From: Spirochaetia bacterium
GTDB taxonomy: Bacteria; Spirochaetota; Spirochaetia; SZUA-6; Bin103
Direction of reading: 5' to 3'
DNA length: 64,000 bases
Assembly: GCA_965208575.1 (NCBI GenBank)
Contig: CBDBOV010000004.1
Span: 96,001-160,000, forward strand
In this document: positions 31,731 through 56,943 of the stretch, piece by piece
Layout: the number at the start of each line of letters is the position of its first letter
How positions within the stretch are numbered: position 1 is the first letter of the stretch
The notes under the pieces: model-generated
What the model saw: only the letters and a program-made list of their open reading frames with translations
Database searches by the model: none
What the model was told of the DNA's origin: nothing
Position numbers and translations under genes: made by a program

Positions 31731-31861
31731 AAGGCCCCCGTCGCCCCTGGCGGACGAGGCCGATGAGGGCGTTCCGAATACGGTCGAAGCGATGAGCGGC
31801 AGAGGTGCCGATCCCAGGACCCGACATGCGACTGGTGGTGGCCATGTGGCGCCTCCTGTCG

Positions 31862-32028
31862 CCCGGCCCGCAAAGGTGCCGGGCTGGTTCGCAAGAGGCA
31901 CTACGATCGCGCAGTTACTCTGAGGCCCTGATGTATTCGCGCCGCGTCCGGGTAGCTACTCCCTTCCGCTGGTGGCGCTGTTGTATTCGATCAGCAGCCC
32001 GGCTCGGGCGCGATCGAGTACCTCTTGC
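31862..32028 (-). ncRNA. Candidate structured RNA / 5' leader, copy 1
   Basis: 138-nt domain closed by a ~21-bp stem plus a 3' hairpin; 119/138 identical to copy 2, with compensatory changes. Confidence 0.65.
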
Positions 32029-32037
32029 AGATTGGCC

Positions 32038-32065
32038 AGTGTATCGAGGAGCGAGCGCGTGTCAA
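32038..32065 (-). promoter_or_regulatory. Sigma70-type promoter TTGACA-N16-TACACT
   Basis: Same hexamers and spacing as 54554-54581, with an unrelated spacer sequence. Confidence 0.75.
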
Positions 32066-32162
32066 CGCTCAGCCAAAGCCCACTATCCCAAGTTTAACGG
32101 GCGAAGGATCGTTTTCGCCGATTTTGGAGGAAAGTGTGCTGATTTGACGGCCTGTAGATGCT

Positions 32163-34149
32163 CTAATCCGAGGTTTGAGAGGCCGTTCTTGTAACTGTTT
32201 CCTATTACAGGAATTAGCGTGTTCATGGGTGTAAATCGTGTCCATGTAAATAGTCCTGTGGTTCAGCGTTAATTTTCTCTCATCTGGTTGACATGTAATT
32301 ATTAAATGATCTACCATTCCCTCCGTAGGGTGCCCATGTACATCGACACCGTCCCCAACCGCAACTCTCCCCCAGCCGTCCTCCTCCGCGAGTCCTTCCG
32401 CCAGCACGGCAAGGTCAAAAAACGCACCATCGCCAACCTCTCCAAGTGGCCCGATCACCTCGTCGAGGGTTTGCGCGTCCTCCTCAACGGCGGTATCGCT
32501 CTGCGCTCTCCCAACGAACTGCTCTCCATCTTGCGCAGCTATCCCCACGGCCACGTCGCCGCCGTCCTCGGTTCCCTCCGCAAGCTCTCCCTCCATTCCC
32601 TCGTCGCTCGTCCCGCCTCCCGTGAACGCGACCTGGTCGTCGCCATGATCGTCGCTCGCGTCGTCGACGCTCGCTCCAAACTCGCCACCGCTCGCGGCCT
32701 CAACCCCGAAAGCGCCGTCTCCTCCCTCGGCCACCTGCTGCAGTTGGGAGCCGTCGACGAGAATGAGCTGTATGCCGCCATGGATTGGCTGCTCGCTCGC
32801 CAGCACGGCATCGAGCAGCGCTTGGCCAAGCGCCATCTGCATGACAACACGCTCATGTTGTACGACCTGACTTCCAGTTACTTCCATGGCCACACCTGCC
32901 CGTTGGCGCGCCGTGGTCACAGCCGCGACGGCAAACGCGGCACCTTGCAGATCGTGTTCGGCCTGCTGTGTACCGCAGACGGCTGTCCCATCGCCGTCGA
33001 GGTATTCGAGGGCTCCACCAGTGACCCCAAGACGGTCGCCGCTCAGGTCGACAAGATTCGCAACCGTTTCGGCTTGCAGCGCGTCGTGCTGGTCGGCGAC
33101 CGCGGCATGCTCACCGGCGCGCGCATCCGCGAGGACCTGCAGGGGATCGACGGCCTGCGCTGGATCACGACCCTGCGGGCGCCCACCATCCGCAAGCTGA
33201 TCGAGGCCGGCGAAGTGGCGCAGACCATGTTCGACGAGCGTGACCTGGCGGAGATCAGCTCACCCGAGTTCCCCGGCGAGCGGCTGATCGTGTGCCGCAA
33301 CCCGATCCTGGCCGAGCAACGGCAGCGCAAGAGGCAGAAGTTGCTGGCCTCCACGGAGGAGGAACTGACGCCGATCGTGACGGCCACGCAGCGCGCCAAA
33401 AAGCCGCTGCGCGGCGCCGCCGCGATCGGCCTGCGGGTGGGCAAGGTGATCAACCACTACAAGGTGGGCAAGCATTTCACCACCACCATCACCGACGACT
33501 CGTTCTCGTTCGTGCGTGACCTGGACAAGATCGCGGCCGAGGAAGAACTGGACGGGCTCTACATCGTGCGCTCCAACGTGGAGCCGGAGCTGTTCGACGC
33601 CGAGCAGACGGTGACGGCGTACAAGGACTTGGCCAAGGTGGAACGTGCGTTCCGCAGCATGAAGACGGTGGATCTGAAGGTGCGACCGATCTATCACCGC
33701 AGCGCAGACCGGGTGCGGGCGCACGTGTTCCTGTGCATGCTGGCCTACTACGTGGAGTGGCACATGCGCAGCAAGCTGGCGCCGGTGCTGTTCGACGACC
33801 ACGACCGCGCCGCCGGCGAGGCGCTGCGCGAGTCGGTGGTGCAACCGGCGGAACGCTCACCGGCCGCACACCGGAAGGCGGCGAGCAAGCGTACCGACGA
33901 CGGTCTGCCGGTGCACAGCTTTCGCAGCCTGATGAGCGAGTTGGGGACGCTGACGGCCAACCGCGTGCGGATAGTGGATAGCGGCGCCACGTTCACCATG
34001 CACAGCGAACCGACCGCGCTGCAGCAGCGCTGTTTCGATCTCCTGGAGGTCAGCGCCCAAGTGTAGCCAGTAACGGACATCGGCTGTTGAGCGCAATTTT
34101 CAGATCAATAACGAATTAACAAGATTCCCGCTCTGGAACTTCGGTCTAA
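32163..34149 (+). mobile_element. IS1634-family element A, copy 1
   Basis: IRs TCCGAGGTTTGAGAG / CTCTGGAACTTCGG, flanked by CTAA on both sides. Confidence 0.88.
32336..34066 (+). CDS. IS1634-family transposase
   Basis: YDLTSSYF, GHSRD, VGDRGM, VERAFRSMK and RPIYH motifs. Confidence 0.93.
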   Translation: MYIDTVPNRNSPPAVLLRESFRQHGKVKKRTIANLSKWPDHLVEGLRVLLNGGIALRSPNELLSILRSYPHGHVAAVLGSLRKLSLHSLVARPASRERDLVVAMIVARVVDARSKLATARGLNPESAVSSLGHLLQLGAVDENELYAAMDWLLARQHGIEQRLAKRHLHDNTLMLYDLTSSYFHGHTCPLARRGHSRDGKRGTLQIVFGLLCTADGCPIAVEVFEGSTSDPKTVAAQVDKIRNRFGLQRVVLVGDRGMLTGARIREDLQGIDGLRWITTLRAPTIRKLIEAGEVAQTMFDERDLAEISSPEFPGERLIVCRNPILAEQRQRKRQKLLASTEEELTPIVTATQRAKKPLRGAAAIGLRVGKVINHYKVGKHFTTTITDDSFSFVRDLDKIAAEEELDGLYIVRSNVEPELFDAEQTVTAYKDLAKVERAFRSMKTVDLKVRPIYHRSADRVRAHVFLCMLAYYVEWHMRSKLAPVLFDDHDRAAGEALRESVVQPAERSPAAHRKAASKRTDDGLPVHSFRSLMSELGTLTANRVRIVDSGATFTMHSEPTALQQRCFDLLEVSAQV

Positions 34150-34234
34150 TGAGCCCGAATGTCCATTGTAGTGCCATAATCGTAGGCTGCCCCATTGACC
34201 CCCTCCTCCGCGCCTCGTACCTTCCCTCCAAGCC

Positions 34235-36067
34235 ATGTTCGTGCGCCGTACTCAAACCCGCTCCACCGCCAGCGGCGACCACTATTTCACCTTTCGCCTC
34301 GTCCACTCCCAACGCGTCGGCGCTCGCGTCCGCCAACGCACCCTGCTCAATCTCGGTCGCCACTTCCACATCCCGCAGGATGATTGGCCTCTGCTTTGTG
34401 TCCGCCTCGAACAACTTCTCAGCCCTCAGCAAACCCTCATCCCGGCCACGGTCGCGCCCGCCGTCGAGCAGGAAGCACAACGCATCGCCGCGCAGTTGCT
34501 CGCCCGCCAGGTGTCGCTCGCGCCGACCGCTGCCAAACCGACCGACGGCAACGCCGAGTGCCTGTTCGAGCGCGTCGATGTCGCTTCCCTGGCGTTGCTG
34601 CGACCACGTAGCGTTGGCGTCGAACAGGTCGCCCTGTGGGCCATCCAGCAGGTGCAGCTGATTCCGTTGTTGCAACGACTGGGACTCAACGGTCCCCAGC
34701 GCGCCGCCGCCGTCGGCTCGATCATCGGCCGCATGGCCGCGCCAGGCTCGGAACGCGCTACCTATCGCTGGCTGTGTCAGCGGAGCGCTCTCGGTGAGTT
34801 GCTGGAGGTGGATTTCGAGACCATGAGCATGATGCGCCTGTACCGCGCCGCCGATGCCCTGGTCCGCCACCAGCAGCAGATCGAACGGCATCTGTTCGAC
34901 CAGGTGACCGAGTTGTTCGGATTGCAGACGACCGTCACGTTATACGATCTGACCAACACCTACTTCGAGGGCGTGGCGGCCGCGCAGCCACTGGCCAGCC
35001 ACGGCCATTCCAAGGAGAAGCGCAGCGACTGCCCGTTGTTAACCCTGGCCCTGGTGCTCGATGGCAGCGGCTTCGTGCGCCGCAGCGAGGTGATGGCCGG
35101 CAAGATCTCCGAAGGAGCGGTACTGCGGGGCGTGCTGGAACGTCTTGAAGTACCGAAGGGAGCGCTGATCGTGATGGATTGCGGGGCGGCCACGGAGGAC
35201 AATCTGAACTGGCTGCGCGAGCAGGGGTACCGCTACCTGGTGGTCAGCCTGGAACGCACCCGGCGCTTCGACGCGGCGGCTGCGGTGAGCTTGACGACGG
35301 CGGGCCAGCTGCAGGTACAAGTACAGCAAGTACACAGCGACGATGGCCCGGAGGTACGGCTGTACTGCTACTCGCCGGCACGCGAAGGCAAGGAGCAGGC
35401 GATGCTGAACAAGGCGCGCGCCCGCTTCGAGAAAGCGCTGCAGGAGTTGCACGAGGGGCTGTCGCGACCACGCACGCACAAGAAGACCGAGGCGGTGTGG
35501 CGCCGCATCGGGCGCTTGAAGAGCACCAGCAGCGGTGCCGGACAGCACTACCAGATCAAGGTCGCCACCGACGACAGCGGCCAGCGGGCCACCGCGGTCA
35601 CCTGGGAGCTGCGCCCGGTGGCCGGTTCGAAGCTGACCGATCCGGGGGTGTACTGCCTGCGCAGCAACCAGACCGACTGGGACGCCGAGGCGATGTGGCG
35701 CACCTACATCATGCTCACCGACCTGGAAGCGGTGTTTCGGTCCCTGAAGTCGGAACTGGGGTTGCGCCCGATCTATCACCAGACGGAGGAACGCTCCAAC
35801 GGCCACCTGTTCATCACCGTGCTGGCCTACCAGTTGGTACAGGTGATTCGGCGGCGCCTGCGAGAGCAGCGGGAGAGCCGGTCCTGGAGCAGCCTGCGCG
35901 AGATCCTCGCCGGCCAGCAGCGCGTCACCGCCAGCTTTCGTCGCGCTGATGGCAGCACGTTGCACGTCCGCAAGGCGACGGTGGCCGAGCCCGAACAACG
36001 CGCCCTATACGATGCGTTGGGCGTCGATGCCGCTCCCGGCGGCGTCAAGAAGCTGGTGGTAGCGTAG
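34235..36067 (+). CDS. IS1634-family transposase (different subgroup)
   Basis: YDLTNTYFEG, GHSKEKRSD and EAVFRSLKSELGLRPIYH motifs; second Asp motif reads MDCG. Confidence 0.92.
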   Translation: MFVRRTQTRSTASGDHYFTFRLVHSQRVGARVRQRTLLNLGRHFHIPQDDWPLLCVRLEQLLSPQQTLIPATVAPAVEQEAQRIAAQLLARQVSLAPTAAKPTDGNAECLFERVDVASLALLRPRSVGVEQVALWAIQQVQLIPLLQRLGLNGPQRAAAVGSIIGRMAAPGSERATYRWLCQRSALGELLEVDFETMSMMRLYRAADALVRHQQQIERHLFDQVTELFGLQTTVTLYDLTNTYFEGVAAAQPLASHGHSKEKRSDCPLLTLALVLDGSGFVRRSEVMAGKISEGAVLRGVLERLEVPKGALIVMDCGAATEDNLNWLREQGYRYLVVSLERTRRFDAAAAVSLTTAGQLQVQVQQVHSDDGPEVRLYCYSPAREGKEQAMLNKARARFEKALQELHEGLSRPRTHKKTEAVWRRIGRLKSTSSGAGQHYQIKVATDDSGQRATAVTWELRPVAGSKLTDPGVYCLRSNQTDWDAEAMWRTYIMLTDLEAVFRSLKSELGLRPIYHQTEERSNGHLFITVLAYQLVQVIRRRLREQRESRSWSSLREILAGQQRVTASFRRADGSTLHVRKATVAEPEQRALYDALGVDAAPGGVKKLVVA

Positions 36068-36229
36068 TGCAACCGCGCGGTTGGTCGGCGAATGTAGTGC
36101 CACACGCGACTTTCCGAATCCCTAACTTCTTCACTTACAAAAAGATAATTTTCGCCCCGTTAACTAGCCCCCTCGGGGCTTTTCATGGGCTCGCTCACGC
36201 GCCGATAATGCAGGCATGGGCGATGAGCT

Positions 36230-37111
36230 ACAGAGGCAGACGACCGCGCGCTGCGCCGTCTGTGCGGCTGGGAGAGTATCCGTGCGCTGCCCAGCGAGGC
36301 GACCTTCTCGCGCGTCTTTGCCGGGTTCGCTGAGGGTACCTTGCCGAGCCGCCTGCACGAGGCGCTGATCGAGAACACCATGGCCGAGCAGTTGGTCGGT
36401 CATGTGTCACGCGATGCGACGGCAATCGAGGGGCGCGAGAAGCCGACGCCGAAGCCCAAGCAGCCAGCCAAACCGAAGCGCAAGCGCGGGCGTCCCCGCA
36501 AGGGCGAGGAACGGCCCAAGGAGCCGAGCCGTCTTGAGCGTCAGCCGCAGATGACGCTGGCCGAGATGCTCGACGACCTGCCGCACGCCTGTGATGTGGG
36601 GACCAAGCGCAACGCCAAGGGAAATAAGGAATCCTGGATCGGCTACAAGCTGCATATCGACGCGGGAGACGGCGGGATTCCGCTCAGTTGCATCCTCACC
36701 TCGGCCTCGGTGCATGACAGCCAAGTCGCGATTCCGTTGGCCACCATGACCGCGGCACGGGTCACCAACCTGTACGACCTGATGGACGCAGCCTACGATG
36801 CCGCCGAGATCAGAGCGCACAGCGCGGCGCTCGGACATGTGCCGATCATCGATGTCAATCCGCGCAACAACGGGTGCCGCATTCAAACGGGAACTGAAGC
36901 AGGAAGCGAAAGCGAGCGCACACTCGGCCAACCGTACGCCAAGGAGGTGCGCTACCGGGAGCGGTCGACGGTGGAGCGCGTCAACGGTCGGCTGAAGGAC
37001 GAATTCGGCGCCCGGCAGGTACGCGTGCGCGGCCACAGCAAGGTGCTGTGCCACCTGATGTTCGGGGTGCTGGCGTTAACCGTGGACCAGTTGCTGCGCC
37101 TGGTGAACTGA
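36230..37111 (+). pseudogene. IS5/IS1182-like DDE transposase, 5'-truncated with local frameshifts
   Basis: PSEATFSR, SRDATAI, GYKLH, LMDAAYD and RSTVERVNGRLK motifs; scrambled segment near 36870-36920. Confidence 0.8.
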
Positions 37112-37325
37112 ACCCGCCGCTCCGCCCACCTACCGCCGACCGCAAGCTGATCTCCGGCAGAAGATAACGGACAGCTCTGCCCGCGCCCTGCCACGGACGC
37201 CGCAATGATCTGTGCATTCTGGCCGACTTGGGGTGCCGCTGACGCCATGACGGAGACATTTCCTTATTGAGTATCGACTTAAATGGTTCAACCACTTGAC
37301 AACCACGCCATATTATTGGTTACCA

Positions 37326-39313
37326 TTAGTCCGAAGTTCCAGAGTCGGAATCGTGGTAATCGTTATTGAAGTGACAATTACGATCAACAGCCGATGTCCG
37401 TTACTGGCTACACTTGGGCGCTGACCTCCAGGAGATCGAAGCAGCGCTGCTGCAGCGCGGTCGGTTCGCTGTGCATGGTGAACGTGGCGCCGCTGTCCAC
37501 CATCCGCACGCGGTTGGCCGTCAGCGTCCCCAACTCGCTCATCAGGCTGCGAAAGCTGTGCACCGGCAGACCGTCGTCGGTGCGCTTGTTCGCCGCCTTC
37601 CGGCGCGCCGCCGGTGAGCGTTGCGCCGGTTGCACCACCGACTCGCGCAACTGCTCGCCAGCGGCGGGATCGTGGTCGTCGAACAGCACCGGCGCCAGCT
37701 TGCTACGCATGTGCCACTCCACGTAGTAGGCGAGCATGCACAGGAACACGTGCGACCGCACCCGGTCAGCGCTACGGTGGTAGATCGGTCGCACCTTCAG
37801 ATCCACCGTCTTCATGCTGCGGAACGCACGTTCCACCTTGGCCAGGTCCTTGTACGCCGTCACCGTCTGCTCGGCGTCGAACAGCTCCGGCTCCACGTTG
37901 GAGCGCACGATGTAGAGCCCGTCCAGTTCTTCCTCGGCCGCGATCTTGTCCAGATCACGCGCGAACGAGAACGAGTCGTCGGTGATGGTGGTGATGAAAT
38001 GCTTGCCCACCTTGTAGTGGTTGATCACCTTGCCCACCCGCAGGCCGATCGCGCCGGCGCCGCGCAGCGGCTCCTTGGTGCGCTGCGTGGCCGTCACGAT
38101 CGGCGTCAGTTCCTCCTCCGTGGAGGCCAGCAACGCCTGCCTCTTGCGCTGCCGTTGCTCGGCCAGTATCGGGTTGCGGCACACGATCAGCCGCTCGCCC
38201 GGGAACTCGGGTGAACTGATCTCCGCCAGGTCACGCTCGTCGAACATGGTCTGCGCCACTTCACCGGCCTCGATCAGCTTGCGGATGGTGGGCGCCCGCA
38301 GGGTCGTGATCCAGCGCAGACCGTCGATCCCCTGCAGGTCCTCGCGGATGCGCGCGCCGGTGAGCATGCCGCGGTCGCCGACCAGGACGACGCGCTGCAA
38401 GCCGAAGCGGTTGCGAATCTTGTCGACCTGAGCGGCGACCGTCTTGGGATCGCCGGTGGAGCCTTCGAACACCTCGACGGCGATGGGGCAGCCGGCGGCG
38501 GTACACAGCAGCCCGAACACGATCTGCAAGGTGCCGCGCTTGCCGTCACGGCTGTGACCGCGGCGCGCCAACGGGCAGGTGTGTCCCTCGAAGTAACTGG
38601 AAGTCAGGTCGTACAACATGAGCGTGTTGTCATGCAGATGGCGCTTGGCCAAGCGCTGCTCGATGCCGTGCTGGCGAGCGAGTAGCCAGTCTATGGCGCT
38701 GTACAGCTCATTCTCGTCGACGGTGTCCAACTGCAGCAGGTGGCCGAGGGAGGAGACGGCGCTTTCGGGGTTGAGGCCGCGAGCGGTGGCGAGCTTGGAG
38801 CGAGCGTCGACGACGCGAGCGACGATCATGGCGACGACCAGGTCGCGCTCCCGGGAGGCGGGACGAGCGACGAGGGAATGGAGGGAGAGTTTGCGGAGGG
38901 AACCGAGGACGGCGGCGACGTGGCCGTGGGGATAGCTGCGCAAGATGGAAAGCAGTTCGTTGGGAGAGCGGAGAGCGATACCGCCGTTGAGGAGGACGCG
39001 CAAACCATCGACGAGGTGATCGGGCCACTTGGAGAGGTTGGCGATGGTACGTTTTCGGACCTTGCCGTGCTGGCGGAAGGACTCGCGGAGGAGGACGGCT
39101 GGGGGAGAGTTGCGGTTAGGGACGGTGTCGATGTACATGGGCACCCTTTCGGAGGGAAGGGTAGATCATTTAATAATTGACTGTCAATTAGATGAGAGAA
39201 AAAGACCGCTGAAAAACAAGGACTATTTACATGGACACGATTTGCACCCATTATCACGCTAAGTCCTGTTATAGAAAACAGTTACAAGAACGGCCTCTCA
39301 AACCTCGGATTAG
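37326..39313 (-). mobile_element. IS1634-family element A, copy 2 (inverted)
   Basis: Same IRs; TTAG at 37326-29 and 39310-13; sits just upstream of the IS1595 start codon. Confidence 0.88.
37408..39138 (-). CDS. IS1634-family transposase
   Basis: Near-identical protein to 32336-34066. Confidence 0.93.
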   Translation of the reverse strand: MYIDTVPNRNSPPAVLLRESFRQHGKVRKRTIANLSKWPDHLVDGLRVLLNGGIALRSPNELLSILRSYPHGHVAAVLGSLRKLSLHSLVARPASRERDLVVAMIVARVVDARSKLATARGLNPESAVSSLGHLLQLDTVDENELYSAIDWLLARQHGIEQRLAKRHLHDNTLMLYDLTSSYFEGHTCPLARRGHSRDGKRGTLQIVFGLLCTAAGCPIAVEVFEGSTGDPKTVAAQVDKIRNRFGLQRVVLVGDRGMLTGARIREDLQGIDGLRWITTLRAPTIRKLIEAGEVAQTMFDERDLAEISSPEFPGERLIVCRNPILAEQRQRKRQALLASTEEELTPIVTATQRTKEPLRGAGAIGLRVGKVINHYKVGKHFITTITDDSFSFARDLDKIAAEEELDGLYIVRSNVEPELFDAEQTVTAYKDLAKVERAFRSMKTVDLKVRPIYHRSADRVRSHVFLCMLAYYVEWHMRSKLAPVLFDDHDPAAGEQLRESVVQPAQRSPAARRKAANKRTDDGLPVHSFRSLMSELGTLTANRVRMVDSGATFTMHSEPTALQQRCFDLLEVSAQV

Positions 39314-39319
39314 TCCATA

Positions 39320-40316
39320 ATGAAAACCCAACCCACGCAGGGACCGAAGCAGGGCGGGCCGGGGCGGCACTACCGGAACGGCATCTCGCTGATGGAGTTG
39401 ATGGGCCTGTTCCCTGACGACGATGCGGCCGAGCAGTGGTTCATCAAGACCCGCTGGCCGATCGGCATCCGGTGCCCGCGGTGCGACTCCGACAGCGTGC
39501 AGGAGCGCACCACCCACCCGACGATGCACCACCGGTGCCGGCCCTGCCGGAAGTTCTTCTCGGTCAAGACCGGGACCTCGATGGACTCGTCGAACACCGG
39601 CTACCGCGAGTGGGCGGTCGGGATCTACCTGTTCGCCACCGGGCTGAAGGGCACGTCCAGCATGAAGCTCCGACGGGACCTCGGGCTGGGCCAGAAGGCC
39701 ACTTGGTTCATGGCGCATAGAATCCGTGAGAATTTCAACCGCAACCCGTACCTGTTCGAGGGGCCGGTGGAGCTGGACGAGGCGTACTTCGGCGGGCTCG
39801 AAAAGAATAAGCACGCTAGTAGCAAGAAGCTACCGGGCCGGGCGTGGCGGCGTCGGCAAGACCGTGGTGGCCGGCGCTCGCGACCACGCGACCAGCGAAA
39901 TCAGCGCAGCGGTCGTGACCGGGACGTCACGACAGGAGCTGGAGCCGTTCGCTGAGGAGCGGGTCGCCCCGGACGCCGACATCTACACGGACGATCATGG
40001 TGCCTACCAGCGAAGGCCGAACCGATACACGGTGCGCCACTCCGTCGGCGAGTACGTCAACGATCAGGCGCACGTCAACGGCATGGAGTCCTTCTGGGGA
40101 ATGATGAAGCGGGGCTACCATGGCACCTACCACCGGATGAGTCCCGCTCACCTGCAGCGCTACGTCAACGAGTTCACCGGACGGCATAACCAGCGCGACT
40201 GCGATACCGAGTTGCAGATGCGAATGATGGCGCAGGGCATGGTCGGCAGACGGCTACCCTACAAGCGGCTCACGGCCGGCCGCCGGCGCGACCCTCATTC
40301 CCACATCGCTACCTGA
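39320..40316 (+). pseudogene. IS1595-family transposase, frameshifted near 39830
   Basis: Zn ribbon CPRC..CRPC and ELDEAYFGG in one frame; YTDD, NGMESFW and YVNEF in another. Confidence 0.88.
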
Positions 40317-40760
40317 GACCGCACCACTCGTCCAATTCATCGTCGTCCTCGTTCGTCTGCGCACACCGATCTTGCCATTCATCATCTTCGAGCTGACGTA
40401 TGTAGGCTTCCTCCGCCTCTCGTTGGTAATCATCATCCTCCTCCGCTTCCTGTTGCCGACGCCATTCGTCATATTCGGCCTCTTCGACTCGGCGACGGTA
40501 GGCTTCCTCTTCCATGCGACGTCGTTCATCGCGCTCGGTGGTTTCTGAGGGCCTTGGTACGGCGCGACGACCACGCACGACAGCGACACGGCCATCAGAC
40601 CGGCGCACGACTACAACACGGCGTTCGGGACGGCGTACTACTACAACACGGCGTTCGGGACGGCGTACTACTACAACACGGCGGGGACGGCGTACTACTA
40701 CAACACGGCGGGGACGGCGGAACACCACTGTCGTAGAGCCATCGGTCTTTCGTTCATGAA
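40309..40760 (-). CDS. Low-complexity hypothetical protein (basic repeats plus acidic tail); start uncertain
   Basis: Open frame through the tandem repeats into a D/E-rich C-terminus. Confidence 0.4.
40601..40719. repeat. Tandem repeat, 30+30+27+27 bp
   Basis: CGGCGTACTACTACAACACGGCG(TTC)GGGA-type units. Confidence 0.92.
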
Positions 40761-41128
40761 GCACGCCTATGCACAAGTTCGGAGGCCCGTTGCTCATAGG
40801 TCGCCTTGATCTCCGATACCCTGGCACGCATCTGCGAGCGCATCTTCTCATCCTCTTTCATCGCGGCCAGCAGATCAAACAACGCAAAGAAAGTGTACTC
40901 ACCCAGCGCTTCGATGTTATCTAGCCGTTGACATACCTCCTGCTCGAACCTGTCGAAACGCTGGTCGACCTCATCGAAACGCCTCAGCACCTCCTGTTCG
41001 AACGCGCGCTGGCGTTGGTCTATTGCATCCAGACGCTGGACGATCACGCTCTGGCTCTGCTCGAACGCCCTTTGACGCTCGCCCATTGCATCCAGGCGCT
41101 GAAGCACCTCCCGCTCAAACTCACTCAC
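40754..41128 (-). CDS. Small coiled-coil repeat protein
   Basis: Repeated FE.EVL.R.DA.DQRQ; GGAGGG RBS; upstream TTGACA-N17-TATGAT. Confidence 0.7.
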   Translation of the reverse strand: MSEFEREVLQRLDAMGERQRAFEQSQSVIVQRLDAIDQRQRAFEQEVLRRFDEVDQRFDRFEQEVCQRLDNIEALGEYTFFALFDLLAAMKEDEKMRSQMRARVSEIKATYEQRASELVHRRAS

Positions 41129-41189
41129 GGCAGCCCTCCAATCTCCACATCTGCATCATATCAATGCGCGTAGCACTTGTCAATAGGTA

Positions 41190-42627: not shown

Positions 42628-42645
42628 AATAGGTAGGTAGGCTGA

Positions 42646-44179: not shown

Positions 44180-44188
44180 GTAGGCTGA

Positions 44189-44758: not shown

Positions 44759-44772
44759 GTAGGCTGGCACCT

Positions 44773-45980: not shown

Positions 45981-46172
45981 GAAAGATTCGTGATCTGACT
46001 GGGGGCTGGGCTGGGCTCGACAGTGCGTCAGTTTGAAATCTACACCGCCTCCTGGTGCTTGCGGTGTACGGTGGTAAGTGATACGTTCGACTCACAACGC
46101 ATTGTAGCTACGCCGCCTGAGGCCCCCCTTGTTGTACGTCGGAAAGGCCAGCGACCCGCCTCGTATAGCTTG

Positions 46173-47645: not shown

Positions 47646-47849
47646 AAATCATCTCCCGCTTTCCGGTCGCAAGCCTCTTGCCTACCATCGCCGGGCGGCA
47701 CGGAACACGGCGCGGCGAGTCACCCGCGCGGCAAGGGGAAACACAGCATGCGCGCCAGTCGTCACATCGCTGCCTGGAATGAGGACTTTCTCTACTCGCT
47801 GCTCACTACTTGAGTAAATCCACTCAGTCGATTGCCCTGAGATACGCTC

Positions 47850-48045
47850 CCTTGATCCTCGCGTTACATACCGGAGACCCGTTATCATGTGCACAGGTAG
47901 GGACTTGCGCCAGCGATCTCTTATAGAGATACAACGGATCGCCGGGAGCGGAGGAGCGCTGCCATGCTCATAAATGATGTAAGGAACTGTACTTACAAGC
48001 GTCGACTGCCTCCGGTCCTTCGGAAGGCGGCTTAGGCGAGGATTT
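47850..48045 (-). repeat. Dispersed 196-bp repeat, copy B (inverted)
   Basis: Matches 27453-27648. Confidence 0.85.
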
Positions 48046-48055
48046 AGGCGCTCCG

Positions 48056-49589
48056 GGGTGCATTCTTTCTCTGTGGTAGCGGAATAGGAACCCTCCCAGA
48101 GACCAGAGATTCGGTGATGTGGTAAACATCGACCTGTCTCTGGGAGGGGACCAAAATGAGTGAGACCTTGGTAACGGAGTTGCTCCGGTTTTGCAAGACC
48201 CGGTGCGGGATTGACCTGAACCCGTGCAGCGGACCACGGGATCTGCTCGCCGCGGAGCTCGGTATGCTGAAGTGCCTGGTGGCTGCGGGACGTGCAGCGA
48301 TGCAACGCTGGTGTGAGCAAGTCGGTGATGGGTATGTCGGTGCGCGCGCAACCCGCGGCGAGGTTCGGTACCGCTTTGTCGGGAGACGGCGGAAGACGCT
48401 GCATGGGCTGTTCGGCGTGATCACCTTGGTGCGCGCCTACTACGCGCCGCTCGGTGGCGGTGGCAAGGGGTGGGTGCCGCTGACAGAGCAACTGGGTATC
48501 GCGGGCGGGTACACGCCTGGGTGCCAGTACTTCATGGCGCGGTGGTGCGCCGAGCAGTCCTACGAGCAGGGTCTGGCGCAATTCCACGAGGTGTTGCGGC
48601 CTGACGGGCGGGAGCTGGTGTCGATGAACAAGGCGTTCGAGATGGTGCGGGCGGTTACTGACGGGTTGGCGGAGCAACGCCAGCGGGAGATTGTCGAGCG
48701 TGCCGACGAGCCGGTGGCGGTGCGCGAAGAGATCACCGGGACGATGGTCGTGGGCATCGACGCGGGGAAGGTGGCGACACGCGCGAACGAGCGGGTAACT
48801 GAAGATGGGAAAAAGAGTTACGATCGCGTGTTTCGGGACTCCAAGGTAGCGACGGTATCAGCGGTGAAGGTGGACCGGGAGGGTGCAGCGCACTGCACCA
48901 AGACCTCCTGTGTCACCGGGATCGAGCATGCTGATGAGTTCTTTCCCCGGATCGAGGTGGAAATGAGCCGGCGCAGCGCTCACCTGGCAGCGCTGGTGCT
49001 GGTGATTCTGGGCGATGGAGCGCATTGGATATGGGACCGGGTCTCCCAGCTGTCCGAACCCGGGCAGAAGGTCTGGCACATCCTCGATTTCTGGCATGCC
49101 TGCGACCACTTGGGGAAGATCGGCAAGGTGTTGTACGGCGAGGGCAGCGAGCAGTTCAAGAGATCCTTCAAGCGCTGGCGCAGCCTGCTGCGCAAGGGCT
49201 GCGTCGCCGCCGTAATCAAGGAACTGCAGGAACTGCACGTCAGTGGCCGCTACAGCGAGAAGCAGTGCTACGACCTCCAGGGCGAGATCAACTACTTCAC
49301 GGCCAACCAGCACCGCATGGACTACCCGCTGTATCGATCGTGCGGTCTGCCGATCGGCAGCGGTGTAGTCGAGGGAGCCTGCAAGAACGTCGTCGCCAAG
49401 CGCATGAAGCAGAGTGGGATGACTTGGTCGCTGGACGGAGCCAAGGAGATGCTTCAGCTCCGCGCTTCGGCGAAGAGCCGTCGCTTCTGGGACGATTTCG
49501 AGAGCCTGTTGCCCTCATCGCCCACCCCAGAATCCAACCAGATCCAGCTTGAGGCTGCCTGACCGCTACCACACTGACGGAATGCACCC
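48056..49589 (+). mobile_element. ISKra4-like element 2, copy 2
   Basis: Same 1534-bp length and TIRs as copy 1; 9-bp TSD GGCGCTCCG. Confidence 0.93.
48156..49562 (+). CDS. ISKra4-like transposase
   Basis: Protein identical to 42673-44079. Confidence 0.92.
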   Translation: MSETLVTELLRFCKTRCGIDLNPCSGPRDLLAAELGMLKCLVAAGRAAMQRWCEQVGDGYVGARATRGEVRYRFVGRRRKTLHGLFGVITLVRAYYAPLGGGGKGWVPLTEQLGIAGGYTPGCQYFMARWCAEQSYEQGLAQFHEVLRPDGRELVSMNKAFEMVRAVTDGLAEQRQREIVERADEPVAVREEITGTMVVGIDAGKVATRANERVTEDGKKSYDRVFRDSKVATVSAVKVDREGAAHCTKTSCVTGIEHADEFFPRIEVEMSRRSAHLAALVLVILGDGAHWIWDRVSQLSEPGQKVWHILDFWHACDHLGKIGKVLYGEGSEQFKRSFKRWRSLLRKGCVAAVIKELQELHVSGRYSEKQCYDLQGEINYFTANQHRMDYPLYRSCGLPIGSGVVEGACKNVVAKRMKQSGMTWSLDGAKEMLQLRASAKSRRFWDDFESLLPSSPTPESNQIQLEAA

Positions 49590-49758
49590 GGCGCTCCGCC
49601 CCCGCTGGACCTGCTCAAACGAGGTCGATAGAATGGCCTGCAGGGGCCTGCTGGAACCGCTCAGCGTTCGTCATAACCAGTTAGGATTGGAGCCCCGGTC
49701 TCGCTCAATAGGCTGCCGAGCCAAGCCACCGCGCAGAGTACCGCCAGGAACACGACAT

Positions 49759-50397
49759 TCATGTAGCCCCTACTCCGAGGAATATCTTCAATCCTTCCGG
49801 GGCATCGTGAGCGTTCAGCACAAGCCACCCCGGCTCGTAGTCGTGCCGCTCACCATCAAGAACATGCCTCAGCTTCCGCTCGTCGATCAGGATGGTCTCG
49901 CCACGGTCACAGTACACAACGGCCATCAGCGACTCTGCCATCCTTGGAGGCTGGTTCATCATCACGAAGAAGTATCCACTCTTGTCTCGCACGATCACTG
50001 TTGGATCGGGCGGCCCCTCTATGCCGGCCCGGCGCAATCGTTCACGCTCTATCTGGATTCCCTCCTGCCGGCCTCGCTCCATACCTTCTTCCAGCGCTTG
50101 TTGCTTGGTCTGCCTAAGCAGCACCTTCGTGATCCCCACGATGAACCCCTCGATCGCGCCACATCCCAGGATTGCTCCCGAGACGTAGCTGTTCAGGTAC
50201 TCGACAATAGCGCCCAAGAAGTACAAGAGGCTCTCCAGGCACCATCCCTTTCCCTGCTGCACGGTGCTACCTATCGAAAGCACCAGCCCGACAATTACGA
50301 CGGTCTCGACGATCCCCAAATAGAACGGGAAGCGTCGAGCCGACACATCAAGCAACGACACCTGATCGTCACTTCTTCTACCTCGCCCCAACCCCAT
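49759..50397 (-). CDS. Hypothetical membrane protein
   Basis: Hydrophobic N-terminal half; EEGMERGRQEG segment; upstream TTGACA-N17-TAGGTT. Confidence 0.55.
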   Translation of the reverse strand: MGLGRGRRSDDQVSLLDVSARRFPFYLGIVETVVIVGLVLSIGSTVQQGKGWCLESLLYFLGAIVEYLNSYVSGAILGCGAIEGFIVGITKVLLRQTKQQALEEGMERGRQEGIQIERERLRRAGIEGPPDPTVIVRDKSGYFFVMMNQPPRMAESLMAVVYCDRGETILIDERKLRHVLDGERHDYEPGWLVLNAHDAPEGLKIFLGVGAT

Positions 50398-50594
50398 TGT
50401 ACCAGAAAACCACCTGATTCGTATACCACTAACACGTCTAACCCCTGGACTAATAGAGACTTACGGAGACTATGCCTCCAACCTATCACCTTGACCATTT
50501 TCTGTCAAGCTCCCCACCGGGCTTGGTCGGACCGGAGTTGGCATGGGAGAAACACGGGTGCGAGCGTATACTGGGCGACGTAATCTTTGAGGGG

Positions 50595-50780
50595 GGCGCG
50601 AAGTAGGCCGGCGATGCACTGGTGTAGCGCCTGCGGGCGAACCCGTTGTCAAGCTTGGTCCCGAGGCCCGTGGCGTTGTTATTGGTGAGGGTCGACTCGC
50701 GGCGCTGTCGCTGTTGATCCATCCCGATAAGGAGAATGCTCAGTTTGCTTCACGCCTCGGCCGCTCCTCTCATTCCCAGG
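50595..50780 (+). ncRNA. IS110 left non-coding end, putative bridge RNA
   Basis: ~190-nt non-coding stretch directly upstream of an IS110 recombinase; positional inference only. Confidence 0.45.
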
Positions 50781-50788
50781 GAGGAGTC

Positions 50789-51232
50789 ATGGCACGACGC
50801 AAACGCGGAGGCAGACGGAGCGGCAAAGGCAATCGCTCGACGCAACCGCAGGAGGTGCACCCCAACGCGGCCGGATTGGATGTGGGCGCCACCATGGTAT
50901 ATGCGGCGGTACGCGCTGAGCGTGCCGAACAGCCGATCCAATCATTCCCGACGTTCACGTGCGATCTGCATGCCTTGGCCGATTGGCTGAGCGCCTGCCA
51001 AGTAGACACGGTGGCCATGGAGTCGACCGGCGTCTACTGGATTCCGGTCTATCAGATCCTGGAAGCACGCGGCTTCGAGGTGGTGCTGGTCAACGCCCGC
51101 CACGTGCGCTCGGTGCCCGGTCGTAAGAGCGACGTCGAAGACTGCGAGTGGCAGTGTTGTCAGCACTCGGTAGGGTTTCTGCGCGGTTCGTTCCGACCGC
51201 CTGACGAGGTGTGCGCGGTGCGCTCCTTGTTG
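50789..51232 (+). pseudogene. IS110 recombinase, N-terminal DEDD domain only
   Basis: AGLDVG, MESTGVYW, VNARH and RKSDVED motifs; truncated. Confidence 0.9.
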
Positions 51233-51265
51233 GGTAGTGGGTCAATTTGAAAGTGACCCACTACC
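51233..51265. repeat. 12-bp inverted repeat at the IS110 truncation point
   Basis: GGTAGTGGGTCA-N9-TGACCCACTACC. Confidence 0.8.
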
Positions 51266-51362
51266 GCGTCGCTGGTAGAGTTGACCGGCGCTCGGACCCG
51301 CTCTTACCTTTCCTGCGGGTCGCCTGGAACCACCAAGTAGCCGAGCGGCTCGGGAGGATTAC

Positions 51363-52100
51363 TTGGCCGCCGGCAAACCGGGCTTGACCGTAGAGGAGTT
51401 TCTCGCCACCGGGTGGCCCGGACGCCCTTCTGGCGCGGCGCCCTCGCAGCCACCGGCGCCCAAGGAGCGCAAGAGCGACCGCGTCAGGAAGTGGCTCGGG
51501 ACGCTCGCTACAGTAGTCCTGGCGGTCGCTGCAGTCGTCGGGACGGTCGTGGCAGTTGGAACCTTCATGGTCTCAGTCTCACCTCCCTCAAGCTCCCCGC
51601 CGGAGGGCAGCCCGGTGTCGGCTCCAGCAGAGACCATCCGTACCCCCGTCGAGGGCGAGCCTGAGTTGCATCCGCCCGTATCAGGCTACGGCGATGAGCC
51701 CATCGCCTCAATCCCGGCCACGGAGTCCTACGATGGCGTTCCCGTCACGGTAGTCAAGGCCGGGTTCATCCATTATGTGTTCCTGAGCCGTTTGTGGCCG
51801 GGGGAGTATGCAGGCCTCGTCTCCGCCGAGTCAGTTACGCCTGCCATCTTCTCGATCGAGGAGAAGAAGCGTGGCTGGGTGATCGTGCGGGGAGAGAGCG
51901 AAGGGATCGGCTGGCTCAGTGTGGTCGCCGAAGACTTCCGCGGGCGCAGATACAGGGCGTCCGTGCCAGTGCACGTCCGGAGCGGCTTGCCCCGAGTGCG
52001 CGCCGGCCTGAAATCAGACCGATTGGATAGGAAGCGGAATGGACTCTCCGTCCCGCGCAGACTACGCCTGCGCCCAACCTCTCGTCAACACCGACGATGA
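51363..52100 (+). CDS. Hypothetical single-TM protein with Pro/Ser linker and beta-rich domain
   Basis: TM at residues ~43-68; C-terminus possibly frameshifted. Confidence 0.55.
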   Translation: MAAGKPGLTVEEFLATGWPGRPSGAAPSQPPAPKERKSDRVRKWLGTLATVVLAVAAVVGTVVAVGTFMVSVSPPSSSPPEGSPVSAPAETIRTPVEGEPELHPPVSGYGDEPIASIPATESYDGVPVTVVKAGFIHYVFLSRLWPGEYAGLVSAESVTPAIFSIEEKKRGWVIVRGESEGIGWLSVVAEDFRGRRYRASVPVHVRSGLPRVRAGLKSDRLDRKRNGLSVPRRLRLRPTSRQHRR

Positions 52101-52316
52101 AACTCTCGCCCTCGCCGCGCACTACGCCTCGGTCATGACCCGGATGGTTCGACGCGGAAGGCTCTGCCGGCACGGCGCGCGGACCTCATTTGCCGCTTGG
52201 TCGCGCTCCGATCTCGGATTCCCGTATGTCATTTCTGGGGAGAGAATTATCTGCTGAAGTTTCGCCGAACTACTATACATTTGTCTGGTAATGGTAACTC
52301 GTTATTCTGGCAAACG

Positions 52317-53384
52317 ATGGGTGGCGGGCCAGGCAACTCCTTCCGGCGCGGAATCACGCTGGTGCAGCTCATGGAGATGTACCCGGACGACGCCACCGCG
52401 GAGGCTTGGTTCATCGCGCAACGCTGGCCAGACGGCATCCGCTGTCCGCACTGTGGCTCCGCCAACGTCCAGGAGAAGGCCGCCCACAAGTCCATGCCGC
52501 ACCGCTGCCGCGCCTGCCGCAAGCGCTTCTCCGTCCGCATCGGCACTCCCCTGCAGGAGTCGAAGCTCGGCTACCGGACCTGGGCGATGGCGATCTACCT
52601 GATGGCCGCCGGCGTGAAGGGGACCAGCTCCATGCGGCTCCACCGGGACCTCGGGATCACGCAGAAGACCGCCTGGTTCCTCGGCCATCGCATCCGCGAG
52701 GCGTTCCGCGAACAGGGCACCGACCAGTTCGACGGCTCCGGCCCGGTGGAGATCGACGAGGCGTATGTCGGGGGCAAGGAGCGGAACAAGCACGCGAAGA
52801 AGCGGCTTGGGAGGGAGGATACCTACTGGGGCAAGACGATCGTCCGCGCAGTCCGCGACCGGCCATCGAACCGGATCACCGCGTCGGTGATCCCGCACAC
52901 CGGGCGGGGCGTGATCCACCCCTTCGCCAAGGAGCGCATCGCGGAGGACACCATGATCGTGCCCGACGAGCTGGGCTCGTACCGGGCGCTCTCCAACCAC
53001 TACGCGGTGAACCACAGCCGCGGCCTGTACGTCGACTGGCTGGCGCACACGAACGGCCTCGAGAGCTTCTGGGCGCTTTTCCGGAGGGCGTACCACGGCA
53101 CCTACCATCACTGGAGCCGGCGCCACATCCAGCGTTACCTGGACGAAATGGCCGGCCGGCACAACCTCCGCCCGCTCGACACCGAGATGCGGATGATCGT
53201 GATGGTGCAGCAGATGGTCGGGAAGGTGCTGCCCTTTCCGCAAGCAAGCTGGCGCCGCGGCGCCTGCGGCAGTTCATCCTGCTCCCGACCTGGTCCCCGA
53301 AAGCTACCTTTCGGAGACCCATCAGCCGCCCCCCGAAGCTACCTGGCCGGCCTTGCCTCAAGCTCCCTGATTCGGCGTTCGTGA
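52317..53384 (+). CDS. IS1595-family transposase (C-terminal tail probably frameshifted near 53237)
   Basis: CPHC..CRAC, EIDEAYVGG, PDE, TNGLESFW and YLDE motifs. Confidence 0.88.
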   Translation: MGGGPGNSFRRGITLVQLMEMYPDDATAEAWFIAQRWPDGIRCPHCGSANVQEKAAHKSMPHRCRACRKRFSVRIGTPLQESKLGYRTWAMAIYLMAAGVKGTSSMRLHRDLGITQKTAWFLGHRIREAFREQGTDQFDGSGPVEIDEAYVGGKERNKHAKKRLGREDTYWGKTIVRAVRDRPSNRITASVIPHTGRGVIHPFAKERIAEDTMIVPDELGSYRALSNHYAVNHSRGLYVDWLAHTNGLESFWALFRRAYHGTYHHWSRRHIQRYLDEMAGRHNLRPLDTEMRMIVMVQQMVGKVLPFPQASWRRGACGSSSCSRPGPRKLPFGDPSAAPRSYLAGLASSSLIRRS

Positions 53385-53575
53385 TCCGCATGGGCAGCCT
53401 CGGTGCGGTCCCAGCGGTCTTCGTTGTCCCGGTCGATCTTGTCGAAGCGCTGGTTCACTTCCTCGAAGCGGCGGTCCATCTTGTCTTCAAGCCGGTCGAA
53501 ACGGACGTTCAGCACGCTCATCGCATCATCAAGGTACGCCTTCAGTTCTGCGTCGGCATTGAGGAGCGGGTCCAC
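53339..53575 (-). CDS. Small coiled-coil protein
   Basis: RFDRLEDKMDRRFEEVNQRFDKID heptads; starts immediately after the upstream stop. Confidence 0.65.
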   Translation of the reverse strand: MDPLLNADAELKAYLDDAMSVLNVRFDRLEDKMDRRFEEVNQRFDKIDRDNEDRWDRTEAAHADHERRIRELEARPAR

Positions 53576-54358
53576 TCAGCACTCCATCGCGGGGTCGCTA
53601 CTCAAGAACATCCAGGTCCTTCCCGAGTCCAGCCATACGTATCCGCTCGTGTAGTTCTCGCGGCCGTCGGCGTCTACCAGCGACGCCCACGGCACACCAA
53701 GCACCGCCGACGTGACCTGCGTGCCGTCTGGCTCGATCATGGTGAACTGCATATACCTCGGTTCATACTGCCACCGGCCATGACCAATGAGTCCACAGTT
53801 CGGGTTCACCATGGTGGCCGTGCCATCCTCGAAGACCCGAATGTAACCCATTCTGGGGGCGTTTTTGGCCTCTGTCTGCCTGACAGACCAAACGCCAACA
53901 GGGCGGAATCTCTCGATGGCCTCTCTTTCGCGGGTGATTTGGCCGGCGAGATGGCCCATGGCATCCATGTCTCGTCGGTAATTTCGCGATTTGGGCTCTG
54001 TTTCGGGCTCGGTTGCGGCAGGCGGGTCGGGAGGGTCTGGCTGGGTGGCCGGTTGGAGGGAAACCCCTTCACCGTCTGATTCGGGCGGCCCAGCGGCCTT
54101 ATCGGGCTCTGGGCGGAACGCAGGCACTTCGTTTTCCTGCTCGGCTGCCCGCTCCTCCCCCGTAGCGGACGGCGCCGCGTAAGCGACGGTGGCTACTGGT
54201 TTTACTGGCGATTCTTGCGCGTCGGTCGGCGTGTCGGAAATCCCAACACCTACCCCGATCAGGAAGGCGAACAGGGCAACGACGAAATACGAGCCGATGC
54301 GCAGCAGTTTTCGGAACAGGCGCCGGAGAGGACGCTTCTTCGGTTGATTCTCGTTCAT
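53576..54358 (-). CDS. Membrane-anchored hypothetical protein
   Basis: GAGG RBS; basic N-terminus, TM, Pro/Glu linker, beta-rich domain. Confidence 0.7.
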   Translation of the reverse strand: MNENQPKKRPLRRLFRKLLRIGSYFVVALFAFLIGVGVGISDTPTDAQESPVKPVATVAYAAPSATGEERAAEQENEVPAFRPEPDKAAGPPESDGEGVSLQPATQPDPPDPPAATEPETEPKSRNYRRDMDAMGHLAGQITREREAIERFRPVGVWSVRQTEAKNAPRMGYIRVFEDGTATMVNPNCGLIGHGRWQYEPRYMQFTMIEPDGTQVTSAVLGVPWASLVDADGRENYTSGYVWLDSGRTWMFLSSDPAMEC

Positions 54359-54373
54359 GGATCACCTCTCGTC

Positions 54374-54543
54374 CCCGGCCCGCAACAAAGGTGCCGGGCT
54401 GGTTCGCAAGAGGCACCACGATCACGCAGTTACTCTGAACTTCTGACCTATTCACGCCACGGCCGGGTAGCTACTCCCATTCGTTGACGACGCTGTTGTA
54501 TTCGACCAGCAGCCCGGCTCGGGCGTGATCGAGTACCTCTTGC
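54374..54543 (-). ncRNA. Candidate structured RNA / 5' leader, copy 2
   Basis: See copy 1; ends at the RBS of the ORF starting at 54358. Confidence 0.65.
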
Positions 54544-54553
54544 TTGAAGGGTC

Positions 54554-54581
54554 AGTGTAGCGCCGGACCGGCATCTGTCAA
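54554..54581 (-). promoter_or_regulatory. Sigma70-type promoter TTGACA-N16-TACACT
   Basis: Conserved with 32038-32065. Confidence 0.75.
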
Positions 54582-56750: not shown

Positions 56751-56943
56751 AATTCATTCTGACGTGGAATCGGAGGGCGCACTACACTCGGGACCGTGTG
56801 GCGACTTCCCTGGTGCGGAGCAGCCTCAACCGGCGTAAAGCACCTATGGTGGAGAACTTCGTAAAGTGGCAACAGTAGTGATACCGTCTGCCACCACGAT
56901 AGTATAAGATATTATCCTGCAATCGATTATACAACTGCGACGA

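Follow-up and report, generated by a model that had tools for sequence, protein, structure and literature searches.

A probable relative of sRNA-Xcc1 as an mRNA leader across bacterial phyla, with a possible two-state, processing-triggered mechanism

sRNA-Xcc1 is catalogued as a small RNA of Xanthomonas, and the 3' end of the C4 antisense RNA of phages P1 and P7 is CCA-like. sRNA-Xcc1 has been reported as an 88-nucleotide (nt) RNA of Xanthomonas campestris that is seen on Northern blots (PMC2996969), as an RNA found upstream of symE in transferable integron cassettes (bioRxiv 10.1101/2025.06.18.660453) and, in Xylella, as a member of tandem multi-copy arrays (PMC12189769). RNase P is described as releasing C4 RNA from a longer precursor by a cut at the 5' end of the first stem, after which the loops of C4 occlude a ribosome-binding site (PMC5320573), and IsrK is described as both a small RNA and an mRNA leader in which alternative structures decide translation (PMC4825925). 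Here we describe a family of structured leader RNAs that resembles sRNA-Xcc1 in its core and may resemble C4 and IsrK in the way it works. Two copies of it, A and B, lie on the minus strand of a 64,000-nt stretch of DNA, hereafter the window, from a Spirochaetia bacterium (GCA_965208575.1, contig CBDBOV010000004.1, positions 96,001-160,000); all positions given without further qualification are window positions. The family is a real, uncatalogued and strongly folded leader RNA that occurs in at least seven phyla, and no published description of it was found in the literature on sRNA-Xcc1, on the motif words or on structured RNAs of sponge symbionts.

A preliminary description of this DNA, made from the letters alone, had proposed that a promoter and a covarying 138-nt domain recur ahead of two unrelated genes, and its reading of the two sites was confirmed when both were read again. 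The hexamers of the promoter-like sites are identical, whereas their spacers agree at 6 of 16 positions (manual count on the aligned strings). The domain, at 32028-31891 in copy A and 54543-54406 in copy B, begins 9 nt (A) or 10 nt (B) past the -10 hexamer and is identical at 119 of 138 positions with zero indels. With spacers at 6/16, neutral positions are therefore saturated while the RNA has been kept at 86%, a pattern that points to selection acting on the RNA rather than to a recent duplication of the DNA. Among the 19 differences between the copies there are two fully compensatory changes of G-C to A-U, one in the outer stem, where it had been noticed together with a U-A to U-G change that is also real, and a second one in the P4 helix; five further differences are wobble-compatible inside helices, and no helix position is broken. 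A consensus scan found exactly one sigma-70-like site in each copy region, with 0.2 expected from shuffles, and a scan of both regions for terminator-like sites found none. Chance resemblance is excluded by the E-values of about 1e-18 that both copies obtain with a covariance model of the family.

A BLAST search with copy A had turned up one more copy in the host genome, the third and a diverged one, as well as weak matches in relatives. The covariance model (R1), built from 21 sequences on a structure that was derived by hand and then checked, gave 69 matches in 18 of the 24 genomes of the host's family, with up to 13 in a genome and six in the host genome, and none in the 68 genomes from seven other families of the host's order. 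When one genome per prokaryotic species was scanned with a strict two-word pattern, 51 loci were found. Twelve of these have titles of Spirochaetia metagenome-assembled genomes and were left out, and the other 39 were scored by R1, which confirmed the full-length motif in 36, from six further phyla. According to record titles and NCBI taxonomy these comprise 24 loci from Gammaproteobacteria (including Candidatus Poriferihabitaceae, Rariloculaceae and Azotimanducaceae), four from Binatota, two each from Gemmatimonadota, Thermodesulfobacteriota and Acidobacteriota, and one each from Alphaproteobacteria and Chloroflexota. The three loci that R1 did not confirm (L116, L146 and L154) are chance matches of the pattern, as are four pattern matches in viral contigs, none of which was scored by the model beyond a 22-nt fragment. 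Five of the non-Spirochaetia genomes hold two to eight copies each, and the combined set of family and other-phyla loci amounts to 105 sequences. A blastn search with the core against plasmid and phage collections gave zero matches. Several member record titles point to sponge-associated bacteria, and to judge from some of these titles the host phyla may share a habitat.

From its 5' end the leader runs through the 5' strand of an outer helix, P1, 0-5 nt, a segment (a) (AUGYCGGGYC), P2 (6 base pairs, bp), GAAUACAACA, P3 (5 bp), about 4 nt and the P4 hairpin, and it continues through P3', GAAUA(C/G), P2', a linker of 7-20 nt, the 3' strand of P1 and 2-4 nt to a segment (b), a short loop, a segment (c), the Shine-Dalgarno (SD) sequence and the start codon. 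P1 has 16-28 bp, begins at or near the 5' end and is unalignable because its sequence is unlike in every copy. The core P2-P3-P4 carries the invariant unpaired nucleotides GAAUACAACAG and GAAUAS and a P4 loop built on an invariant UAGCU, in the form AGUAGCUA or GGUAGCUC. Segment (b) is GGCCCGGC followed by RCC, a tail present in 72 of the 105 sequences, and (c) is complementary to (b) in a register that varies. Segment (b) is also complementary to (a): GYCGGG and the CCCGGC beyond P1 can pair in 93 of 99 sequences.

This fold retains some of the pairings first proposed and replaces others. The CCCGGC/GCCGGG hairpin beside the ribosome-binding site is present and corresponds to b:c, while an inner CCGGG/CCCGG stem, in which GYCGGG would pair with the 5-mer after the P4 loop, is available in 30 of the 99 sequences only. 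What had looked like two tandem motif pairs is more convincingly explained by one conserved internal loop around P3, whose two strands are GAAUACAACA and GAAUAS, together with the P4 loop; one supposed motif part, AGAGUAACU, falls in the poorly conserved linker, and the bipartite non-coding RNA that had been suggested gives way to the architecture P1/a/P2-P3-P4/b/c. We also dropped a reading of GGUCGAAUAC as a T-loop, its UC belonging to the covarying P2. The loop word UAGCU(A) of P4 is self-complementary (UAGCUA, or at least AGCU), so that loop-loop pairing between copies is conceivable.

The statistical support for the helices is strong. In the 69 family sequences 91.7% of the cells are paired against 76.4% in shuffles, and double changes occur in 23 of the 27 pairs. 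The covariation claimed at the outset is borne out by a score of 0.466 against 0.200 in shuffled alignments, a value that 0 of 500 shuffles reach, all slid controls lying at or below 0.092. Pair statistics are alike for the 36 sequences from other phyla, whose alignment also contained two spurious short rows. For P1 we compared duplex energies: cognate strands have a mean of -32.4 kcal/mol and sampled non-cognate strands one of -17.5 (mean z -4.2, n=105), and in the 69 family sequences the energies are -34.4 kcal/mol against -19.4 in shuffles. G-U pairs are frequent, for example in 32 of 69 sequences at the first pair of P3, and the structure is assigned to this strand because there are many of them. 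In the isolated RNA from (a) to (b), the minimum free energy (MFE) fold contains the a:b closing helix in 83 of the 105 sequences.

At gathering thresholds Rfam 15 recognizes one RNA in the whole window, the transfer-messenger RNA (tmRNA) at 56941-57291, and the strong hit to a known Rfam family that had been named at the outset as refuting the proposal did not appear in either copy. At E<=10 the only family aligned over its full length is RF02221, sRNA-Xcc1, which scores 24.1 and 23.7 bits on the window copies against a cut-off of 53 and also matches 6 of 20 diverse members, the best at 34.9 bits and all below 53; a whole-genome model search found no bona fide sRNA-Xcc1 above the cut-off in the host genome. 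The register of these alignments is constant: the (a):(b) closing helix, then P2, the AAUACAA/GAAUA internal loop, the inner hairpin on P3 and the RCC tail. The description of the RNA as new therefore holds to the extent that no Rfam family reaches its gathering score, and does not hold for the order of the core elements, which is that of sRNA-Xcc1. The two RNAs have in common a closing helix GCCGG.../...CCGGC with an RCC tail, the AAUACAA/GAAUA loop and the inner hairpin, and both are multi-copy, mobile and placed upstream of a gene. They differ in three respects. The inner hairpin here has an extension of about 30 nt (J-P4 with its UAGCU loop); the second local hairpin of sRNA-Xcc1 is replaced by the 3' strand of P1, which pairs with the extreme 5' end and so crosses the closing helix; and sRNA-Xcc1 is a stand-alone RNA ending at a U-run, whereas the leader has no U-run terminator and is directly followed by b:c, the SD and the gene. 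In most copies the SD and start lie within about 20-45 nt after the leader. From these sequence comparisons we regard the family as an enlarged sRNA-Xcc1 relative, and not as a member, since it fails the membership score. That it is a structured cis-leader family, real and related to sRNA-Xcc1, we regard as very likely.

A promoter-like site ends a median of 7 nt before P1 in 19 of 96 sequences and in none of the control windows. An SD-preceded open reading frame (ORF) of at least 60 amino acids starts within 110 nt in 76 of the 105 loci, and no ORF was called within that distance in the other 29. The cargo genes are unrelated and mostly encode lipoproteins or exported proteins; by a crude N-terminal test, 43 of the 69 family loci and 20 of the 36 other loci have a lipobox or a hydrophobic signal-like start. 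A Pfam scan was run on 57 of the 76 ORFs, 19 short or apparently wrong-frame calls being left out, and assigned a family to 16 of them, among which are trypsin-like peptidase, collagen repeat, Calx-beta, He_PIG, Big_9, PEGA, Borrelia P13, Sel1, outer membrane protein barrel and leucine-rich repeat (LRR). A few of the 16 are cytoplasmic (LuxR-PAS, a GTPase and the EcoRI-type adenine methylase gene of the gammaproteobacterial loci L112 and L120). The second protein behind copy A has a signal anchor and a tRNA_anti-like domain with an OB-fold (PF12869, E 2e-19). A portable, covarying, structured leader with its own promoter ahead of unrelated membrane or exported proteins had been the central claim of the preliminary description, and the covariance model and this gene survey agree with it. 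Two smaller observations concern the coding regions. Behind copy A, the stop of the 40-codon ORF overlaps the GTG of the next gene at 31723-31729 (GTGAGTAG), which could be translational coupling or a frameshift. At L039, L042, L066, L084, L086 and L099, unrelated lipoproteins have in common an N-terminal extension F/YAKRRMRHRRPIPI before the hydrophobic signal region, and the portable module may reach into the first codons.

We propose, tentatively, that the leader has two states. Transcription would start at its own promoter, and the leader would make up the first ~190 nt of the mRNA; as long as P1 is closed the ribosome-binding region would be open and the gene translated. If the 5' strand of P1 were removed or displaced, either the body would adopt the Xcc1-type shape, with a:b as its closing helix, or the 3' strand of P1 would extend the b:c hairpin over its own SD and start and shut the gene. 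The latter extension is possible because the order is P1-3'/(b), then (c)/SD-start. Since P1 forms first and is very stable, the 5' strand must be actively removed or displaced. Our best guess for the trigger is endonucleolytic processing, in which either RNase P would cut at the acceptor-like end formed by the a:b helix and its RCC tail or RNase III would cut the long P1 duplex; we judge this likelier than a small-molecule ligand. By analogy, the a:b helix with RCC may be likened to the acceptor end of a tRNA; U stands at position -1 in 46 of the 69 family copies, and the terminal pair of the helix is G-C.

Predicted folds and complementarities are consistent with parts of this scheme. In nested folding the ground state consists of P1, the core and b:c, with a probability of 0.74 for b:c and 0.02 for a:b, (a) and (c) competing for (b). 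When the 5' strand of P1 is taken away, copy A folds into the Xcc1 layout with a:b formed, and copy B masks its own SD and AUG, which copy A does not. Across the 76 loci with a called ORF, the 3' strand of P1 complements its own SD/start window better than the windows of other copies (mean z -0.88; 12 loci below -2, 29 below -1 and two above +1), while the 5' strand has no such bias (z 0.01), and in 96 sequences anti-SD 4-mers number 49 on 3' strands and 13 on 5' strands. The SD/start pairs with the 3' strand of P1 in the MFE folds of 6 of 76 full-length leaders, a number that rises to 32 of 76 once the 5' strand is left out (Wilcoxon p ~1e-4). The masking effect is thus real but far from universal. 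Consistent sequestration of the SD was not found in full-length folds, where its mean pairing probability is 0.54 with scattered partners.

The closest parallels to such a mechanism are C4 and IsrK. The likeness to C4 (RF01695, with the C4-like small RNAs of Acinetobacter baumannii) would be one of mechanism and not of membership: in both, the regulatory RNA would be made as the upstream part of the transcript that it controls, and a copy-specific sequence would pair with the ribosome-binding region downstream, a complementarity that in the leader family is far from universal. Here, however, the antisense part is a helix strand and not two loops, and the cargo consists of surface proteins and not of phage immunity genes. 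IsrK (RF01394), from the Gifsy-1 prophage of Salmonella, is likewise island-borne and can be both small RNA and mRNA leader, but relies on terminator read-through, and the window copies have no terminator. Neither RF01695 (at E<=10) nor RF01394 (by sequence or model) matched the two copies or the 20 diverse members. In the clearest C4-like cases, L112 and L120, a U-run comes after (b), and a near repeat of the P1 5' strand occurs at the ribosome-binding site.

Several points weigh against the explanation as a whole, the two-state reading included. The masking of the ribosome-binding site is a statistical effect, seen in 32 of 76 folds without the 5' strand and not in copy A. No rival pairing comes near the stability of P1, which also forms first, so that an active trigger is required, and the RCC tail is also part of the b:c stem and need not signal RNase P. 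The a:b pairing is less proven than P1-P4: in the 69 family sequences its support comes mostly from invariant positions or wobble changes with few U-A double changes, and one of its positions is unpaired in 15 of 69. By a geometric estimate, a:b together with a long P1 would probably form a strained pseudoknot. The helix statistics themselves come from two pair-count alignments that were fitted to the model, which favours the model, although an unfitted MAFFT alignment is already 91.7% paired with a covariation of 0.368 against 0.189. Carriage by IS1595-family insertion sequences (IS), treated below, is a partial link: an IS1595 homologue occurs within 1.5 kilobases (kb) of 8 of the 69 family loci, and a PF12762 match within 5 kb of 1 of the 21 copies in the five other-phyla genomes. 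A C4- or IsrK-like two-state leader, rather than a metabolite riboswitch, is a tentative model to which we assign a little less than an even chance. The whole statement, of a multi-copy, horizontally spread, Xcc1-related leader that is two-state and partly carried as IS1595 cargo, stands in our judgement evenly balanced between right and wrong.

Four other explanations draw on the same evidence. The leader had been called riboswitch-like, and in a metabolite- or ion-sensing riboswitch the core would be the aptamer and P1 a switching helix by which the ribosome-binding region is exposed or covered; unpaired nucleotides highly conserved across seven phyla, the leader position and the alternative partner of the P1 3' strand at the SD/start are what one would then expect. 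However, a P1 of 16-28 bp at about -34 kcal/mol is far beyond what ligand binding usually tips, neither window copy region has a terminator, and the unrelated surface or exported cargo has no metabolic theme or common substrate. The likeness to the yybP-ykoY Mn2+ riboswitch that had been suggested comes down to the short words GGGAGUAGC and GAAUAC, architecture and gene context being unlike, and neither it nor any other riboswitch family matched the two copies or the 20 diverse members at E<=10. A classical metabolite riboswitch is thus quite improbable. We give a small chance, somewhat better than that, to a leader that is mainly a trans-acting small RNA, as sRNA-Xcc1 was first described, with conserved loops acting on shared targets or an RNA-binding protein and the gene as a read-through passenger. 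Kinship to an RNA seen by Northern blot at 88 nt (PMC2996969), a body that closes by a:b on its own, loops identical across copies and phyla and the loci without a called ORF speak for it, but no terminator follows (b) in the window copies, an SD and start stand at a fixed short distance after most copies, and the copy-specific P1 with its complementarity to its own start region argues for action in cis. Overall, the interpretation given in the preliminary description is partly supported.

An equally small chance falls to a constitutive 5' stabilizer or translation enhancer without switching, in which the 5'-terminal helix blocks 5'-end-dependent decay and b:c keeps the ribosome-binding site clear. 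The short distance from the -10 hexamer to P1, which would leave the 5' end base-paired, and the absence of consistent SD sequestration in full-length folds fit this; it leaves unexplained the invariant core loops, the a/b complementarity and the complementarity of the 3' strand to the start region. That the inverted repeats of a DNA-level element, such as a miniature inverted-repeat transposable element (an alternative raised at the outset), a transposon end or a recombination site, merely mimic RNA helices is very improbable. Long inverted repeats, multiple copies, a cross-phylum distribution, the position of some copies in IS1595-family transposons and that of both window copies in an IS-rich island would all suit such an element. 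Yet the P1 repeats are unlike in every copy and still complementary, the G-U pairs of the helices would be C-A on the other strand, the similarity between A and B skips the promoter spacer, the leader is always oriented toward a start codon, and in two bounded transposons it is internal and not at an end.

The two-state reading that we prefer can be carried further, to a self-addressed antisense device in which a universal enzyme, RNase P or RNase III, would read the invariant core and the a:b-RCC end and clip the 5' strand of P1, after which the copy-specific 3' strand would silence its own mRNA only. We consider this extension unlikely. If it were true, the universal trigger would let the module work in any bacterium, and this would account for how it has spread across at least seven phyla, in part by way of IS1595 transposons, as a plug-in controller of surface proteins.

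The IS1595 family has subgroups that carry passenger genes. In the host genome IS1595-like DNA lies beside three of the six copies, always in the order transposase gene, convergent cargo gene, leader. Two of these three (L166 and L167) are inside elements bounded by perfect terminal inverted repeats of 21 and 26 bp, which are common to the two transposons and occur nowhere else in the host genome, and L167 is flanked on both sides by TTTGAAAA, an 8-bp duplication read from the flanking sequence. Besides its transposase gene, each bounded transposon contains small divergent ORFs and a cargo gene that stands behind the leader and is convergent with the transposase gene; the leader lies 0.6-0.8 kb from the right end. 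These two copies thus ride as internal cargo, with no visible role for the leader in the transposition machinery. In the window, the transposase gene convergent on the cargo gene of copy B encodes an IS1595 homologue with PF12762 and a zinc ribbon. No terminal inverted repeats or right-end repeat were found around copy B, the inverted repeat that the two bounded transposons share does not occur in the window, and no inverted partner was found for a left-end-like word at 52242-52261. Near copy A there is no IS1595 gene. Carriage on transposons is thus one way in which the leader spreads, and not the usual one.

The region that holds both window copies, about 32 kb from a tyrosine integrase gene (24778-25953) to the tmRNA gene on the minus strand, looks like a genomic island at ssrA. 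It contains transposase genes of the IS4/IS1634, IS1595 (two), IS110 and UPF0236 types, an N6/N4 DNA methylase (29470-30405) and a DUF4041/T5orf172 protein. A further IS1595 fragment is found at about 56559-56740. Two IS4/IS1634-type transposase genes, at 32306-34063 and 37408-39141, are on opposite strands and 96% identical over 399 residues (tblastn of the second protein against the DNA of the first). A 27-30-nt unit occurs in four tandem copies at 40580-40710, within an ORF at 40309-40848 on the minus strand. This ORF converges with the second IS1595 transposase gene (39320-40313), which is frameshifted, and R1 detects no leader upstream of the ORF. The coordinates of the leader elements and associated genes are collected in Table 1.

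Table 1. Elements of the two window copies of the leader and associated genes and transposons
Feature	Position	Strand	Basis or remark
Copy A, promoter-like site TTGACA-16-TACACT	32065-32038	-	consensus scan, 10/12 matches
Copy A, P1 5' strand	32008-32028	-	9 nt after -10 hexamer; pairs with 31891-31912; carries SD-like AAGAGGU
Copy A, segment (a) GCCGGGCUG	31995-32003	-	complementary to (b); covariation and fold
Copy A, conserved core P2-P3-P4	31928-31994	-	covariation, MFE fold, conservation
Copy A, P2	31990-31994 with 31928-31932	-	
Copy A, J loop GAAUACAACA	31979-31988	-	
Copy A, P3	31974-31978 with 31939-31943	-	
Copy A, P4 hairpin	31944-31969	-	loop AGUAGCUA at 31953-31960
Copy A, GAAUAC	31933-31938	-	
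Copy A, linker GGCCUCAGAGUAACU	31913-31927	-	poorly conserved family-wide, pyrimidine/A-rich
Copy A, P1 3' strand	31891-31912	-	carries anti-SD-like GCCUCU; duplex energies, fold
Copy A, segment (b) CAGCCCGGC and ACC tail	31875-31886	-	
Copy A, segment (c) GCCGGGC	31861-31867	-	
Copy A, SD AGGAGG	31852-31857	-	
Copy A, ATG	31843-31845	-	
Copy A, downstream coding region	31723-31845, then to 31242	-	40-codon ORF, then GTG-opened protein
Copy B, promoter-like site TTGACA-16-TACACT	54581-54554	-	consensus scan, 10/12 matches
Copy B, P1 5' strand	54523-54543	-	
Copy B, segment (a)	54510-54518	-	
Copy B, core P2-P3-P4	54443-54509	-	collinear with copy A (offset +22515)
Copy B, P4 loop	54468-54475	-	
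Copy B, P1 3' strand	54406-54427	-	pairs with own SD and AUG in fold without 5' strand
Copy B, segment (b) and ACC tail	54390-54401	-	
Copy B, segment (c)	54374-54379	-	
Copy B, SD GAGAGG	54365-54370	-	
Copy B, ATG	54356-54358	-	
Copy B, downstream gene	53576-54358	-	260 amino acids, basic N-terminus and transmembrane segment, no Pfam family
IS1595-family transposase gene	52197-53381	+	convergent on copy B cargo gene; same layout as bounded transposons
IS1595-family transposon L167	1040-4299 of locus L167, on another contig of the host genome		about 3.3 kb; perfect 26-bp terminal inverted repeats
IS1595-family transposon L166	1037-3770 of locus L166, in the host genome		about 2.7 kb; perfect 21-bp terminal inverted repeats

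At minimum, with about 100 sequences and strong covariation, the leader is a well-supported candidate for a new Rfam family. An enlarged Xcc1-type core here serves as the leader of mRNAs, close to the promoter, in Spirochaetia, Gamma- and Alphaproteobacteria, Binatota, Acidobacteriota, Chloroflexota, Gemmatimonadota and Thermodesulfobacteriota, where it precedes genes for collagen-like, immunoglobulin-like, Sel1, LRR, protease and lipoprotein products, the kinds of surface proteins that are thought to mediate contact with a host. The cross-phylum leader related to sRNA-Xcc1 is itself well supported, and a two-state, processing-triggered mechanism for it is plausible but unproven. If the two-state reading is true, the leader would be a host-independent regulatory cassette that moves with its cargo, and it would offer a testable mechanism for the whole superfamily of Xcc1, C4 and IsrK.

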